A stretch of 63,997 nt of DNA, filler included, from an uncultured Methanosarcinales archaeon (GTDB taxonomy: Archaea > Nanobdellota > Nanobdellia > Woesearchaeales > CAYSVS01), in assembly GCA_964434475.1 (NCBI GenBank). It is 3 parts of 3 records of this genome, joined end to end, with 100 filler letters (N's around TTAATTAATTAA, not from the genome) between each part and the next. Parts side by side here need not be neighbours in the genome. Positions count along the whole stretch, not along the records: positions 1 to 28,626 come from CAYSVS010000013.1; positions 28,727 to 57,177 come from CAYSVS010000014.1; 1 more part is not named here. The stretch is one strand, 5' to 3'. The position numbers are program-made. Positions 24,001 through 30,000 of the stretch are shown piece by piece. The stretch's first letter is position 1. Every line of letters starts with the position of its first letter.

Positions 24001-27000
24001 TAAATTCTTGGCTCAGTTTAAGAGATTCTATATTGCATTTGCTCAAGCAGGTATTCAATACCTGAAGCATCACTTCTTTAGGCATCTTTTTCTCTTTTTT
24101 CCATTGATCGTGGTATTTCTTGATGTTCTTTGCTTCATCAACCCACACTATCTCTCCGCCCAACTCTATAACAGCCAGATCCTTCTTCGCATCATCCATA
24201 TATTTTGTATTGAATTCAAAAATAAATCTCAATCCGTCCTGTTCACTCTTGCCGAGAACAAGTTTCTTTTTCTCTACATCTTTAATAGAAACATTGTTTG
24301 AAATATTGATCTTGCCTTTAAGCATATTCTTTATCTCAGCATTGATCTTTAAAAAATTAAATCCTACGATACCCATAAATACCACCTTTTATCCAAAATC
24401 AAGCACTGTTATTTAAATATTATTGATTTTAAAAAGCAAAATAATATAAATATGCCTTTTTTCTACTACCTTATGACTAATTTCAGAAGTTTATTTGACA
24501 CTGTAAGCGCTTCTGGCAGATAGAGTTCTTTTTAGATATTTTTAGAGGTTATTTTTAAGATGCAAATAAAAATAAATCATGGACATGGAAATCATCTCAT
24601 AATAGATGTTTTTGGATGCGATAAAAATCTTGACGACAAGGACAATATACAAAAATTATTAGAAAATCTACCAGAAAATATAGGAATGAAAAGGATATCT
24701 GAAGCGTTTGTAATGCAGTATGATTCTCAAGATAATGAAGAATCAGGGATTACTGGTTTTGTCATACTTGCCGAAAGCCATATTTCCATACATACATATC
24801 CTAAAAAAGAGTTTGCAAGCATTGACATATTCAGCTGTAAAGAATTCGACTATAATGCCGCTTCTGAAAAAATAAAGCAATTCTTCAGTGCTGAAAAAGC
24901 AGAACAAAAGTTGATATCGAGAGGGCACAGCGAACTATTTGACGCAGACAATAAACTAAGCAAAATAAAAGGACCAATTATCGACGAAGATAACAAAATT
25001 ATAGACTTGATGAAGGATATGAAAAACATAGGTTTTCAAGCTACGCATCTTGGACAAAGCTTAGAAGTTCTAAAGAAAATCAAAGAATCAGACGCTACTT
25101 TGTTCTTGAGCTTCACATCAAATATGGTTAGTTCAGGATTAAGAGAAATCTTTGCGCAGATGGTTAAAGATAACATGGTTGATGTGATTATCACTTCTGC
25201 AGGAGCTGTAGAAGAGGATATAATGAAAAGCAAAAAAGATTTTCTTCTAGGAGATTTTAATGTTTCAGATATAGAACTGCATAAAAAAGGGATAAACAGG
25301 ATAGGCAATATATTTGTGCCTGACGACAGATATGAATTGTTGGAAGATATTTTGATGCCTTTTTTCAACAATATGATGAAAAAGCAGAAAAAAGAAAACA
25401 AATTAATTTCTCCTTCTCAACTTATCTTTGAATTAGGCAAAAGCATAGAAGACGATAAATCTATCTTATATTGGGCATCAAAAAATAACATCCCTATATA
25501 TTGTCCAGGAATTACAGACGGAGCATTGGGATTACAGCTATACTTCTTCAAACAAAAAAACCAAGAATTTGGGATTGATGTCACAGCAGACATGAAAGAT
25601 TTAGCAGATAAAATATTGCTTGCAGATAAAACAGCAGGGATAATATTAGGAGGAGGCATTGCAAAACATCATCTAATAGGCGTAAATATACTGCGAGAAG
25701 GCTTGGATTATGCTATATATGTGACAACATCTTCTGAGGGTGATGGTTCATTATCAGGCGCAAGACCTAAAGAGGCTAAATCGTGGAGTAAACTTAAAGA
25801 AGAAGGAAATAATGTTTGCATAGAAGGAGATGCAACAATAATTTTTCCTTTGATTGCACATTCAATGAAAAAAATATGGTGCGAATATGAATGATCTTGT
25901 TTTACTTTTGATAGCTGCGCTGCTTTCCGGAATAGCGGTAAAGTATGCAGATTATCTGGAAGACAGAAAAGAAAAAAGCAATACTTTTCTTAGGATAATG
26001 ATAGGCGTATTGTACGGGTCATTGCTTTATTCATGTCTTCATATATTTCCGCAATTGAAAGAGCTCTGGATAGGCATGATATTCGGATTGATAGTGACAG
26101 GAAAAATAGATGCGGTATCGCATTATATAGGAGTAAGCTTGTTTTTTATCCTATTGATATGGATCAAAGGACTTATTGTAATGAATTATTGGATTTTGTT
26201 CATGTTTATAGGAGCATGTATATTAGAAGAGAATCTTAATGAATATATGGATAAGGGCAAGATAGAAAAAAAGACATTAAGAAAAATAATTTCAATAAGA
26301 CCAATAGTAGAGATGGTTGCATTGATAGTCAGCATAATTACAGGGCTGTGGCCTATATGGTTTGCACTGCTAAGTTTTGATATTGGCTATGTAATAACAA
26401 GCAGGATAGAAAAATGAGTTGGATGAATCTGAACAAAGAATATAGTGGAGAAGCAAGCAAATATGTAATATTGCCAATAGAATATGAAAAAGATGTTACA
26501 TATGGCAAAGGAGCAAGTTCAGGAAGCAAAGCGATAATAGAAGCTTCAAAACATCTGGAATATTATGATGAGGAGTTTGACAAAGAGCCTTTTGTTGAAG
26601 GTATTAAATTAGCAGATAGTTTGAATTTGATTGCTAAAATACCAGAAAACATGGTTGATATTGTCGATAACAAAGTAAAAGAATTGAAAAATAAGTTTGT
26701 GATAGGGTTAGGCGGAGATCATGCAGTTTCTATAGGCATGATTAAAGGCATGGAAGCGGAGCATGGTGATTTTTCCGTTATTGTATTGGATGCGCACAGC
26801 GATTTCAGGGATAGCTGGAACAATTCTAGCTTGAATCATGCATGTGTTTCTAAACAAATATCAAAGAAACATTCACTTGCAATTATAGGAGTAAGATCAA
26901 TGGACATAGATGAAGCAAAAGAGATTGATGAAAAAAAAGATGTTCATCTGATAAAAGCTTATGATTTGGATATTGAAAAACTTGATAAGGTAATTGACAA

Positions 27001-30000
27001 GTTGAAAGATAAGGTTTACATATCAATAGATGTCGATGTATTTGATCCTTCATTTATTCGCAACACAGGAACACCAGAACCAGGGGGATTTTCTTGGAAC
27101 AAAGTTATTGGAATACTTAAGACAATATTTGATAACAAGCAAGTGATTGGATGCGATATTGTTGAGTTTGCGCCAAAAGTAAATTATGAAGCAGAAGCTT
27201 ATGCTTTGGCAAAACTAGCATACAAGATAATGGCTTTGAAAAAACAACAATTATAAATGGATAAAGGATGTATAAATCAAAATGTTAATAGATGTGCATA
27301 CGCATTTGGATCATGAAATGTTTAAAGAGGATTTAGATGAAGTTATTTCTCGAGCTAAAGAAGCAAGCGTTAAAATCGTGATTACAAATGGCATAAATCC
27401 AGAAACTAATCGCATAAGTTTAGATTTGACTAGAAAATATGATATTATCAAATGCGCAATGGGAATCTATCCTATAGATGCACTGCAGAAAGAGATTGAA
27501 TCTGGAGAATATCCATTATCTAAGCAAGAGTTTGATGTTGATAAAGAAATTGACTTTATCAAAGAAAATAAGGAAAATATTGTTGCCATAGGAGAAGTAG
27601 GTATGGATGGAAAATTTGGCAAAGACATGAAGATGCAAGAAGATGTGTTTGAAAAGATGATATTGCTTGCTAAAGAACTTGATTTACCGATAATAGTACA
27701 TTCTCGTAAAGCTGAAGAGAAATGTATAGAATTGCTTGAAAAACACAAGATGAAAAAAGTTATCATGCATTGCTTTGGCGGCAAAAAAAGATTAGTCAAA
27801 AAAATAATAGAAAACAGATGGTATTTTTCTATACCATGCAATTGCGTAAGAAGTCATCATTTCCAGAATATGATAGGAATGGTCAATATAAATCAACTGT
27901 TGACAGAAACAGATGCACCATATCTTTCACCTTATGCTAATAAGCGTAATGAACCTGCTTTTGTTCGCGAAACTATCAAGAAGATTGCAGAGATAAAAGG
28001 ATTTACTGAAGAAGAAGTTGAAAGGAATATTTTTCTTAATTATCAAAGGTTGTTCTAAAGATAAAGCTTTAGAGTATATAAAGGAAATTCAGTCTTTTCT
28101 AATTTAGATTTGTCATTTAAATAATCCAAACTTGTTTTGAAATAATCAAGATACTCAGAAAATATAAAAGAAGATAGATAACCCGCTGCAGCAATACAAG
28201 ATTCAAAAAAAGTAATCTTATTAGGTCCTAATTCTTGATCAATACCGGCAAATTTCAATTCCGATGAGTTTGTTCTTATAGAATATATCTTCTCATATAA
28301 CAAAGGCATAAAAATAGCTTCATCAGTTCTTGAAGCTAACTGGTTATCTATATAATCATTATAGTGTAAATAAGAATCAATAAAATAACACAAATCAAAT
28401 TTATCGGGATTTTTAATAGTATATGTCTCTTTTTGATCATTAACCATAAGAGTCAATGATTCTTCAGAGTATCTTTCAAGCAACTTTTCTGCTATTAATG
28501 GAATTGTTCCTTCATATTCTGTCTTTTGCATTATTTGGGTCATAAATAGATCAATTATAAATCTTACTCAATTCTCACTGGAGTTGTGCAGATTTAAACT
28601 CTAGCCTTGGCTAAACCTCTAAATATNNNNNNNNNNNNNNNNNNNNNNNNNNNNNNNNNNNNNNNNNNNNTTAATTAATTAANNNNNNNNNNNNNNNNNN
28701 NNNNNNNNNNNNNNNNNNNNNNNNNNTCAAGTAGATATATAGAGTTTACGTTTTTGCTAATTTTGCAAAGTTCCCTAAATATATTTCAAAGGATTTGAAT
28801 GTTCCAAAAGTCTTATGCTCTAAATCAAGATTTGCTTTGAATTTATTGAAGCACTGGACAAATATACATGTCCAGTGTATATTACCTGAATTATTGCTTC
28901 TCAAGCTTTTTACTTCATCCAAGATACCACTGGACACACTGGACAGGTGTGCGCGTGAGATATATAAAGAGATAATGACAATATATATTGTATGTTGCTA
29001 ATAAATTTATGTCAAAAATAAAATAATGTATATGGGCGGTGATAAAAATGAAAGAAATAATTTCAAAACAATTAGTATCAAGAGACACTCCATTAAATGA
29101 ATTAACACTAAGAAGATATGAGAAACCAAACAATCTTGGGCATAGAGCACTTATAAAAAAACTTTGCCTAAGCATAGGCTTGCTGCAGCCAGGAGATTCA
29201 AGAGACATTATAGTAGATATATTATATATTATGCTGCAATCCAGAGAAGAATTACCAAGCGAAGAGATAAGATTAAGGGTTGTAGATTATAGAAAACAGA
29301 ATAAATTGCCATTGAACGGAGTCGCATCAAGCAATATAAGGCGGCAGTTAAAACGTCTAAGAGAGATATTTCTTCTAGAAAAAGTAGCTAATAAATATAG
29401 GATATATGAAAATGCTGAACTAACACAAACATTTGAAGAAAAATTGGAAACATATCTATTAAAAAGCATAATAACAAGGGTTAAGGATTACTATAAACAA
29501 GTGGATAGCATGTTTAACTGAAAATAATTACAATTTTATTATTTATATTTGTATAGATTCTTATATTAATTGTGTGATTTATTTAGCCACACATAAGCAC
29601 AACTTCAAAACATATATATATCCAAACCAAAATTCTTAATAATGTGATAATTATGTCAGTATTTGAAAACGCTTTGCAACAGATGAATGATGCACAAAAC
29701 ATTGCAAGAATTCCGCATTATAAGATTGAAATCCTTAAAAAACCACAAAGACTACATGAAGTAAACATACCTGTAAAGCTTGATTCTGAAGAAGTTAAGA
29801 TATTCACAGGCTATAGAAGCCAGCATAACAATAGCAGAGGACCGTATAAAGGCGGAATAAGATATCATCCTAATGTTACTTTGGATGAAGTTAAGGCATT
29901 ATCTTTTTGGATGACTTTTAAATGCGCTGTAATAGACATCCCTCTTGGAGGAGGAAAGGGAGGGATAATAGTGAATCCAAAAGAATTAAGCCCTGCTGAA

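Follow-up and report, generated by a model that had tools for sequence, protein, structure and literature searches.

Agmatine as the building block for the modification of aIF5A is not a new idea, since Prunetti 2016 (PMC5178350) proposed this pathway for Haloferax; as described in that paper, the Haloferax deoxyhypusine synthase (DHS) gave no in vitro activity with agmatine, putrescine or spermidine. In human DHS the amino groups of spermidine are bound by D243, D316 and E323, and Kobayashi 2024 (PMC10981699) reports that Phe204 and Leu286, at the first two of these positions, set the agmatine-coupling CdmS apart from the human enzyme. On the side of the decarboxylases, Li 2023 (PMC10407285) describes DPANN SpeD homologs (PIN80235 and PIN84875) that were assayed as arginine-specific decarboxylases. 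According to this paper SpeDA is hard to distinguish from SpeD on sequence, and one ("gamma") Pro is fully conserved in true AdoMet decarboxylases (AdoMetDC) and not in SpeDA.

The window studied here, which means the whole stretch of DNA analysed (63,997 nucleotides, filler included), belongs to the 1.50 Mb genome of an uncultured archaeon (148 contigs, 96.95% complete, about 3% unassembled). It carries a gene that fuses a SpeD-family decarboxylase to DHS, followed by a membrane protein gene (m176) and an agmatinase gene (Table 1). The fusion, its active site and its neighbours suggest that this small archaeon could build the aIF5A modification from agmatine rather than from spermidine.

Table 1. 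Positions in the window of the fused gene, its domains, selected codons and the two downstream genes.
Feature	Coordinates	Strand	Basis
SpeD-family decarboxylase::DHS fusion gene, 444 aa	24560..25894	+	ORF without internal stop, Pfam, NCBIfam
N-terminal decarboxylase domain, residues 1-132	24560..24955	+	alignment to T. maritima AdoMetDC; SpeD tree
Ser73 codon, predicted pyruvoyl precursor	24776..24778	+	alignment; invariant in 44 fused homologs
Linker and DHS domain, residues 133-444	24956..25891	+	gap-free alignment to human DHS 96-351
Tyr258 codon, human Tyr176 (stabilises the eIF5A hypusination loop)	25331..25333	+	alignment
Leu325 codon, human Asp243 (spermidine-binding) replaced by a hydrophobic residue	25532..25534	+	alignment
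Leu398 codon, in place of human Asp316, the other acidic residue that binds spermidine	25751..25753	+	alignment
Lys411 codon, human catalytic Lys329	25790..25792	+	alignment
m176, 176-aa multi-pass membrane ORF overlapping both neighbours	25887..26417	+	ORF; AF2 model
Agmatinase-family ureohydrolase, 280 aa	26414..27256	+	TIGR01230, PF00491

The fused gene and the gene content of the genome

A preliminary description of this DNA had stated that one ORF joins a SpeD-type domain to a full DHS and that the fusion is conserved. Both statements hold: the 444-aa ORF is uninterrupted and matches PF02675 (AdoMet_dc, residues 12-122, 95.4 bits over a cut-off of 25, spanning the whole model, positions 1-107) and PF01916 (DS, residues 149-435, 363.1 bits), and the two Pfam domains occur together in 58 of the 120 best homologs. 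Among the NCBIfam models, the DHS equivalog NF003052 (388.9, cut-off 380) and TIGR00321 (337.8, cut-off 304.25) are passed, and the SpeY model NF002699 reaches 129.5, below its cut-off of 500. These DHS and SpeY scores agree with the figures given earlier, whereas the AdoMetDC equivalog TIGR03330, quoted as 86.9, gave 83.5 (above its cut-off of 75.65), and the earlier E-values were slightly off.

Whole-genome scans returned a single match each for PF01916 and PF02675 (both the fused gene) and for PF00491 (the agmatinase gene), and these two genes are the only DHS, SpeD-family and arginase-family genes of this 96.95%-complete genome. No spermidine synthase (PF01564) was found over the cut-off of 22.9 in the same scans, the best match scoring 19.5 bits, and PF01862 (PvlArgDC), PF02784, PF01276 and PF04371 gave 0 matches each; in this 96.95%-complete genome neither a decarboxylase of the AR or AAT fold nor agmatine deiminase was found. 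HMMs of our own, applied to every six-frame ORF, gave the same gene content, in agreement with the earlier claim of a single DHS, no spermidine synthase and no other arginine or ornithine decarboxylase. The genome holds a SpeD homolog with an agmatinase and without SpeE or a canonical ADC or ODC, the gene content used to recognise SpeDA, for which AguA/AguB may stand in for agmatinase.

The agmatinase had been placed two genes downstream, and indeed only m176 separates it from the fused gene. The start of m176 overlaps the fused gene and its stop overlaps the agmatinase gene; as read from the sequence, the three genes are translationally coupled. The agmatinase scores 212.6 with TIGR01230 (cut-off 174.3) and 188.6 bits with PF00491, and its best solved relative is the agmatine ureohydrolase 3pzl (E 1e-30), with which the GGDH, DAHSD and S-x-D-x-D stretches, presumably the metal-ligand motifs, are aligned.

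Active sites of the two domains

Although its closest solved structures are AdoMetDCs and TIGR03330 is above its cut-off, the decarboxylase domain probably does not act on AdoMet. S73, H78 and C93 correspond, in the alignment to the solved structure, to S63, H68 and C83 of the T. maritima AdoMetDC, the self-processing Ser and the catalytic His and Cys (Li 2023, PMC10407285); among 44 fused homologs S73 and H78 never vary and C93 hardly does. Self-cleavage is predicted at E72/S73, so the S73 pyruvoyl would sit at the N-terminus of a chain that runs on into DHS. The tree built from 26 SpeD homologs of the order (Woesearchaeales) has a branch with 99/98 support that separates 21 sequences (4 of 4 fused domains, all 9 agmatinase/DHS-adjacent homologs and 8 others) from 5 (3 speE-linked and 2 similar sequences); the assayed PIN80235 matched none of 10 clusters looked up. 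A longer loop marks the agmatinase/DHS-linked clade, and the Pro of an F-x-P-x-G motif is absent from 21 of 21 members; outside it this Pro is kept in 4 of 5 (G058, G039, G091 and G114) and is missing from the very divergent speE-adjacent homolog of G102. The fused protein has Glu at this place, and the Pro that Li 2023 found conserved in true AdoMetDC is taken to be that of F-x-P-x-G. The position of the domain within the linked clade supports the earlier reading of a likely SpeDA-type decarboxylase.

Residues of the DHS domain are related to human numbers by subtracting 82, and its best solved relatives are 7cmc (314 bits) and human 1rlz (255 bits). The catalytic set K411 (K329), H370 (H288), E405 (E323) and W409 (W327) is kept, and equivalents of human E137 and D238 are also present. 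L325 and L398 replace D243 and D316, suggesting that the domain works like a DHS, probably not with spermidine. Among the best 120 homologs the equivalents of 243 and 316 are hydrophobic in 58/58 fused and 61/61 unfused prokaryotic proteins, apart from one Ser and one gap at 316 among the fused ones, and three SpeY of relatives have F/C at this pair. Position 316 alone is not diagnostic, as the solved archaeal DHS 7cmc has D243 with Leu at 316. That agmatine and not spermidine is the donor, as had been suggested before, is supported by a hydrophobic pair like that of CdmS.

Features of the acceptor side would be compatible with aIF5A. The residues that hold the eIF5A loop, N173, Y176 and L295, correspond to D255, Y258 and I377; Tyr is kept (invariant in 44 fused proteins) and the other two changes are conservative, position 173 being Asp, not Asn, in this DHS domain, and N164 is kept as well. 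The three SpeY sequences examined have D164, E173, V295 and, in all three, Leu at position 176. The aIF5A gene lies outside the operon on another contig (G000:C1:46363-46743, 137.7 bits), and encodes the loop SRPGKHGHAK with the target lysine; an aIF5A was found in 41/41 genomes sampled. A complex predicted from two copies of the DHS domain and aIF5A scored 0.55 (best of 3 controls 0.00); this lends weak support, on a scale whose pass mark is reached by 116/157 solved complexes and 2/215 mismatched pairs and on which only 18/157 score 0.60 or less, and it may reflect likeness only, because DHS-eIF5A complexes are already solved.

Relatives, the proposed agmatine route and its alternatives

In 40 loci of relatives, selected for adjacency of these genes, DHS and agmatinase are accompanied by a SpeD homolog, a short PF02784 decarboxylase or PvlArgDC, so that two unrelated decarboxylase families (PvlArgDC and the short PLP decarboxylase) replace the SpeD-type domain in the same operon slot; in about 60 of 151 genomes the gene neighbouring DHS is the short PF02784 form. 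Co-occurrence was counted across the order in 82 genomes with a single DHS, which are relatives and not independent samples. With a hydrophobic residue at 243 (n=58), agmatinase is present in 55, a weak match in 2 and none in 1; with an acidic one (n=23), the numbers are 3, 3 and 17. The linkage is not exclusive to the hydrophobic type, given these 3 acidic-type genomes and G017, where an acidic-type DHS lies directly beside agmatinase, and in one genome with the fusion (G070, 82% complete) no agmatinase was seen. This co-occurrence lends support to the earlier reading that agmatinase finishes the modification.

The membrane protein m176 is found at 4 of 4 fused loci. Of 59 metagenome loci with enough space for it, 22 have it directly 3' of DHS, and all 22 are of the hydrophobic type. 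This type of DHS has m176 as a conserved partner on its downstream side. No Pfam or NCBIfam family matched it, and a fold search with its AF2 model (pLDDT 94.4, 8 helices) gave no informative match.

On balance, we lean towards a bifunctional enzyme that would convert arginine to agmatine and then use agmatine to modify aIF5A, with the agmatinase completing deoxyhypusine. The SpeD-derived domain would cleave itself at E72/S73 to form its pyruvoyl cofactor and would decarboxylate L-arginine to agmatine, as SpeDA does. The DHS domain, with NAD, would oxidise the primary amine of agmatine, hold the 4-guanidinobutyl group on Lys411 and pass it to the conserved lysine of the aIF5A loop, with release of ammonia. 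The co-transcribed agmatinase would then take urea off the protein-bound guanidinobutyl-lysine to leave deoxyhypusine. The two substrates, the intermediate and the sequence in which the steps occur are our inference; observed are the gene architecture, the catalytic residues, the donor-site changes, the gene content and the co-occurrence.

The same operon content and counts fit equally well the step order of a putrescine route, in which the domain makes agmatine, the agmatinase turns free agmatine into putrescine and DHS takes from putrescine the aminobutyl group that it attaches to aIF5A, with ammonia set free. A short diamine would also suit a site without D243, the residue to which an amino group of spermidine binds, and the route is among the open models in Prunetti 2016 (PMC5178350). 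We nevertheless consider it unlikely: the decarboxylase is fused to DHS and not to agmatinase, suggesting that agmatine is handed straight on, and the 243/316 pair is that of the agmatine-using CdmS. Moreover, JBC 2026 (PMC13625781) argues that next to a canonical agmatinase a DHS-type enzyme would lose the agmatine it needs, and reports SpeY-linked ureohydrolases as inactive on agmatine; no DHS-family enzyme with putrescine as donor was found in the cited literature. Similarly improbable is a SpeY-like synthesis of polyamines by the fused protein, even though its donor-site residues agree with SpeY and CdmS, true SpeY operons (PvlArgDC-agmatinase-SpeY, NF002699 575-601 bits) exist in the order, and speDA of Woesearchaeota is described as clustered with "speY" and speB (Li 2023, PMC10407285). 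The protein falls far short of the SpeY cut-off while passing the DHS equivalog, keeps Y176 against the Leu of the three SpeY and has Asp against their Glu at 173; the three SpeY-bearing genomes examined have a second, separate DHS, whereas the DHS here is single and aIF5A is universal among the sampled genomes. Homospermidine is a side product of eukaryotic DHS in the literature, and homocoupling may be a side activity of the fused DHS.

DPANN archaea may import polyamines from their hosts, which would favour a true AdoMetDC as N-terminal domain, with a DHS that uses imported or unconventionally made spermidine and an unrelated agmatinase. The AdoMetDC-like score and structures mentioned above would fit, but we regard this as very improbable: the 96.95%-complete genome yielded no SpeE to use decarboxylated AdoMet, and the tree places the domain apart from the speE-linked clade. 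Neither of the spermidine-binding residues D243 and D316 is kept, the three genes form one operon by their overlaps and no pathway step joins AdoMetDC directly to DHS.

Returning to the agmatine route, a wider proposal is tentative and, in our judgement, a little less likely than not: agmatine-dependent deoxyhypusination (guanidinobutyl-lysine on aIF5A, trimmed by a protein-directed agmatinase) might be real and widespread in archaea, with SpeDA::DHS as its most compact form, bacterial SpeY as descendants of agmatine-type archaeal DHSs and m176 as a fourth, unrecognised component.

Comparison with known systems

As in Haloferax volcanii (Prunetti 2016, PMC5178350), DHS is clustered with an agmatinase-like gene, a working spermidine route is lacking and the same chemistry is proposed. 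In contrast to the aIF5A-agmatinase-DHS cluster described in that paper, the decarboxylase is here fused to DHS, aIF5A is encoded elsewhere and the lineage is DPANN; according to the same source, Haloferax has TiaS and a PvlArgDC-type ADC. The locus resembles SpeDA (Li 2023, PMC10407285) in the SpeD fold, in the absence of SpeE and of a canonical ADC or ODC, and in the clustering with agmatinase and a DHS homolog. It differs in the covalent fusion to DHS, the fusions that Li 2023 describes being only SpeD-SpeD, and in its partner, which scores as a canonical DHS whereas the DPANN partner is called "speY" there. With CdmS and SpeY (PMC10981699, PMC13625781) it shares the NAD/Lys mechanism, hydrophobic residues at 243 and 316 and a ureohydrolase partner, but the acceptor is likely a protein lysine and not a second agmatine as in their homocoupling; unlike the three SpeY, which have N288, L176 and E173, it keeps H288 and Y176 with Asp/Asn at 173. 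Finally, it is like canonical DHS (human 1RLZ/8A0E, archaeal 7CMC) in passing the equivalog score and in the equivalents of K329, H288, E323, W327, E137, D238 and Y176, and unlike human DHS in having Leu/Leu for D243 and D316, needed there for spermidine binding, while a decarboxylase domain stands in place of the N-terminal region of the canonical enzyme.

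The fused gene and its operon

Positions 1-28,626 of the window correspond to contig C13 of the source genome (G000; 1.50 Mb, 148 contigs, 96.95% complete) and 28627-63997 lie off this contig, so gene order across 28626/28627 implies no physical linkage. The fused protein (Table) matches AdoMet_dc (PF02675, 95.4 bits, residues 12-122) and, further along the same ORF, the deoxyhypusine synthase (DHS) family DS (PF01916, 363.1 bits, residues 149-435), as the preliminary description had claimed with slightly different scores; the agmatinase that it placed two genes downstream is also there. 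The C-terminal part exceeds the NCBIfam DHS equivalog NF003052 (388.9 vs. a cut-off of 380) and TIGR00321 (337.8 vs. 304.25), the SpeY model NF002699 gives 129.5 against a cut-off of 500, and the N-terminal part is over TIGR03330, the AdoMetDC equivalog (83.5 vs. 75.65). From the gene overlaps, the fused gene, the 176-aa ORF and the agmatinase look like one translationally coupled operon.

Features discussed in the text (window positions unless a locus or contig is named)
Feature	Position	Strand	Remarks
Fused SpeD-family/DHS gene	24560..25894	+	Uninterrupted ORF, 444 residues
176-aa membrane ORF	25887..26417		No known family; start overlaps fused-gene stop
Agmatinase	26414..27256		TIGR01230 212.6 (cut-off 174.3); start overlapped by stop of 176-aa ORF
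TatD gene	27282-28058		Next after agmatinase
176-aa membrane protein gene, other loci	L007:4275-4805; L008:4291-4821; L009:2848-3369; 22 metagenome loci among L207-L286
Divergent DS homolog (genome G039)	L024:4038-5033		149.5 bits
Candidate tRNA-Ile(UAU) of G000	C23:7096-7205

The fusion is real and conserved: both domains are found in 58 of the best 120 homologs from a 5.8-billion-protein set (one of the 58 partial, and the protein of the window itself among them), which come from NCBI, JGI, ENA and Logan assemblies. Aligning 44 fused proteins shows S73, H78, Y258, H370, E405, W409 and K411 to be invariant, with C93, L325 and L398 almost so. An apparent 451-aa DHS of a relative (G015) was rejected as a fusion, having no second domain and a 5' part that overlaps an EamA gene on the opposite strand.

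DHS types are named here by the residues at human DHS positions 243 and 316 (residue number minus 82). The 176-aa membrane protein lies directly 3' of Leu/Leu-type DHS genes, fused or unfused, including 22 of the 59 metagenome loci with room for it, and at none of the loci with an acidic-type DHS. Its invariant polar residues are D22, D75, H79, E115, R138 and D165, and its AF2 model (pLDDT 94.4) has eight helices; Foldseek against the PDB returned nothing at E <= 0.001 (best 0.59), a wide VIA-align search gave a best Z of 6.0, uninformative for a helical bundle, and the ESM Atlas held only unnamed archaeal clusters. TatD often lies near DHS, at 34 of 80 DPANN loci with a Leu/Ser-type DHS (L127-L206), as well as following the agmatinase in the window; this pairing may be older, the membrane ORF and agmatinase having been inserted between the two later.

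PF01916, PF02675 and PF00491 each have a single match in the whole source genome, all in this operon. Family scans of the whole genome found no spermidine synthase over the cut-off (best 19.5 bits) and no PvlArgDC, AR-fold or AAT-fold decarboxylase or agmatine deiminase, and HMMs built from relatives and run over every six-frame ORF gave the same gene content. The earlier statements that this genome has no other DHS homolog, no spermidine synthase and no other arginine/ornithine decarboxylase thus hold. The TiaS_FLD domain (PF08489) has no match in the genome either, and aragorn, with introns allowed, called only 26 tRNAs, a set too incomplete for conclusions, which lacks tRNA-Met and includes a candidate tRNA-Ile(UAU). 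The missing TiaS_FLD and the UAU anticodon hint that AUA is read without agmatidine, and agmatine may, on the weak basis of 26 called tRNAs, have no tRNA role in this organism.

Decarboxylases beside the synthase

In a fixed set of 151 genomes from the order to which the source genome belongs, that genome included (the unpublished G112, G121 and G132 entered these tallies only, with no sequences used), DS has a match in 150, the arginase family in 113, PF02784 in 92, the SpeD family in 49 and PvlArgDC in 31. PF01564 is over its cut-off in 51 genomes, only three of which (G039, G058, G102) hold a full-length, high-scoring SpeE (162-226 bits), the remaining matches being either weak or partial, the latter in ORFs of about 500-850 aa. 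Such long ORFs with a partial spermidine-synthase domain occur in many relatives (e.g., G023:C23, G001:C75, G135:C13), and were not counted as spermidine synthases. They are similar to the membrane-fused SpeE homologs known from halophiles, which are described in the text of Prunetti 2016 (PMC5178350) as devoid of putrescine-binding residues.

Forty loci, picked for adjacency by coordinates and therefore a non-random sample, were fetched and annotated. The slot beside DHS and agmatinase is filled by a free SpeD homolog in G059, G136 and G065, by a short PF02784 decarboxylase (~340-390 aa) in G028, G097, G022, G085, G006 and, judged by coordinates, a total of about 60 genomes, and by PvlArgDC in G140, G120 and G049. 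Three unrelated decarboxylase folds in one slot beside agmatinase point to agmatine as their shared product. In most of the order's genomes with a Phe/Met DHS, the low-scoring short PF02784 protein is encoded between DHS and agmatinase (seen at L011-L015, L032 and, by coordinates, in those ~60 genomes); it probably represents a shortened arginine decarboxylase of the AR fold that is dedicated to this pathway.

The PvlArgDC operons (PvlArgDC-agmatinase-SpeY at L017 and L018, of G140 and G120; PvlArgDC-SpeY-CN_hydrolase at L036, of G049) encode true SpeY proteins (NF002699 575-601 bits, cut-off 500). All three genomes also hold a separate DHS, that of G120 with its own adjacent PF02784 decarboxylase, and NF003052 scores of 386-390 class the fused proteins from G032, G129 and G070 as DHS. 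A further relative, G039, carries a divergent DS homolog in a SpeD-agmatinase-DS cluster, with Asn/Tyr at 243/316 and Asp at 288 and no NCBIfam model at E <= 1e-60, in addition to its true SpeE, a second SpeD and an acidic-type DHS.

In the fused protein, S73 lies in an E-S-H motif and is aligned to Ser63, the self-cleaving residue of T. maritima AdoMetDC (residue roles as described in the text of Li 2023, PMC10407285). By analogy with the family, processing would leave the pyruvoyl group at the N-terminus of a ~42 kDa chain continuing into DHS, and the ~8 kDa fragment would stay bound. In a tree of 26 SpeD homologs, a branch supported at 99/98 separates 21 of them, namely four fused domains, all nine that adjoin agmatinase or DHS and eight without informative neighbours, from the speE-linked sequences and two like them. 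Four of the latter five read F-x-P-x-G-V-T-G ... H-T-W-P-E ... C-G, the exception being the very divergent, speE-adjacent sequence of G102. The clade of 21 has a loop 7-10 residues longer, no Pro at the place of the one in F-x-P-x-G, and the stretches H-T-(Y/F)-P and F-S-C-K-E. According to the text of Li 2023 (PMC10407285), one Pro is fully conserved in true AdoMetDC but not in SpeDA, the forms that decarboxylate arginine, and the DPANN SpeD representatives assayed are arginine-specific; we infer that this Pro of Li et al. 2023 is that of F-x-P-x-G. The accession of the assayed SpeDA, PIN80235, is absent from the ten named stand-alone SpeD clusters, and the tree of 26 carries no anchor to that enzyme.

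Donor and acceptor sites of the synthase domain

The DHS domain aligns without gaps with residues 96-351 of human DHS, so human numbering can be transferred. D243, D316 and E323 of the human enzyme bind the amino groups of spermidine, and their alanine mutants are inactive; D243 and D316 correspond to L325 and L398 in the fused protein. The CdmS of T. thermophilus, which couples two agmatines, differs from human DHS in its substrate site at exactly these two positions (Phe204 and Leu286), as stated in the text of Kobayashi et al. 2024 (PMC10981699). Among the best 120 homologs, the 243/316 pair is LL in 52 of the 58 fused proteins (LV 2, LS 1, IL 1, LI 1, gapped 1) and in 50 of the 61 unfused prokaryotic ones (LV 10, ML 1), the sole D/D pair belonging to a plant protein. 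Position 316 alone proves nothing, since the solved archaeal DHS 7cmc has Leu there with Asp at 243. The text of Prunetti 2016 (PMC5178350) reports that the spermidine-binding residues of Haloferax DHS, H288 included, are not conserved; a contig scan with a Leu/Ser-type DHS alignment, aimed at haloarchaeal DHS, kept 80 loci, all from DPANN or unclassified archaeal MAGs.

On the acceptor side, the hypusination loop of eIF5A is held by N173, Y176 and L295, whose alanine mutants abolish hypusination (Wator et al. 2023). The fused protein has D255, Y258 and I377 there, with N164 kept; among the other hydrophobic-type DHSs of the order, Y176 is present in 54/54 and N173 in 46/54, and the three SpeY sequences read D164, E173, L176 and V295. 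SpeY-like residues at 243/316 together with a kept Y176 suggest a fused enzyme with a SpeY-like donor site and a DHS-like acceptor site. The acceptor aIF5A lies on contig C1 of the source genome (137.7 bits, loop SRPGKHGHAK), and the protein is found in 41/41 genomes sampled, its loop being identical for every DHS type. A predicted complex of two DHS domains with aIF5A scored 0.55 (best of three controls 0.00), a weak support; among solved complexes 116 of 157 reached the pass mark, and among mismatched pairs 2 of 215, but scores of 0.60 or below were reached by only 18 of the 157. Similar complexes have already been solved, so the score may come from likeness alone.

Across the order, 103 DS sequences from 98 genomes were translated, covering all listed places for handles up to G100 and the loci picked earlier, apart from G069, G071, G086 and G095 (not fetched) and G001, G003 and G100 (places not listed). 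The 243/316 pairs were FM 40, DD 27, LS 7, LL 6, FL 5, ML 3, FC 3 (the SpeY), DN 3, DL 2, FV 2 and five singletons, two of them gapped. Position 243 is hydrophobic in 58 of the 82 single-DS genomes, acidic in 23 and unclear in one. Agmatinase accompanies the hydrophobic type in 55 genomes (weak or partial match in two, none in one, the fused, 82% complete G070) and the acidic type in three (weak or partial in three, none in 17), and a candidate arginine decarboxylase is present in 55/58 vs. 10/23; these are counts rather than statistics, as the genomes are relatives; the non-random first picks contributed two of the 58 (G129, G136).

Proposed pathway and its alternatives

In the best-supported reading, which we hold to be somewhat better than an even bet, the N-terminal domain would decarboxylate arginine to agmatine, the DHS domain would move the guanidinobutyl group of agmatine onto the lysine of aIF5A, and the agmatinase would take off urea, leaving deoxyhypusine. 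Against it stand the passing of the AdoMetDC equivalog model by the N-terminal domain, an acidic-type DHS that adjoins agmatinase in G017, the Asp at position 173 and the in vitro inactivity of Haloferax DHS with agmatine, reported in the text of Prunetti 2016 (PMC5178350). That the first of these points marks a true AdoMetDC is very improbable and finds little support. A DHS using putrescine as donor would suit the operon, but neither the fusion partner nor the CdmS-like site, and we regard it as unlikely. A SpeY-like role in polyamine synthesis, which we find similarly doubtful, agrees with the donor site but not with the family score, the kept Y176 or the fused gene being the only DHS of the genome; as a side activity of the fused enzyme it is possible.

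Since 2016 it has been a question by what route archaea lacking spermidine synthesis form the essential (deoxy)hypusine of aIF5A, and the text of the JBC 2026 SpeY paper (PMC13625781) asks outright, as an open question, whether archaea have agmatine-dependent DHS proteins. This locus is a self-contained test object, in which one polypeptide should convert arginine, NAD and aIF5A to the modified factor, with the finishing hydrolase adjoining. A kept Tyr176 combined with hydrophobic residues at both 243 and 316 is a possible sequence marker for sorting archaeal DHS genes by donor and acceptor, and the annotation of DPANN DHS homologs clustered with arginine decarboxylase and agmatinase, now read as homospermidine synthases, would change. 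Literature searches, which did not reach most subscription journals, found no paper on the fusion or on agmatine-dependent aIF5A modification. SpeDA, the SpeY/CdmS chemistry and the Haloferax model are already known. The fusion appears to be new, as do the hybrid donor/acceptor signature and the link of that signature to agmatinase across the order, although some of the residue differences may already be visible in the supplements of Prunetti 2016 (Fig. S8), of Li 2023 (alignments) and of Kobayashi 2024 (Supplemental Fig. 1). The pathway itself is the one proposed for Haloferax as model (d) in the text of Prunetti 2016 (PMC5178350), to which the present case adds a fused enzyme and a residue-level rationale.
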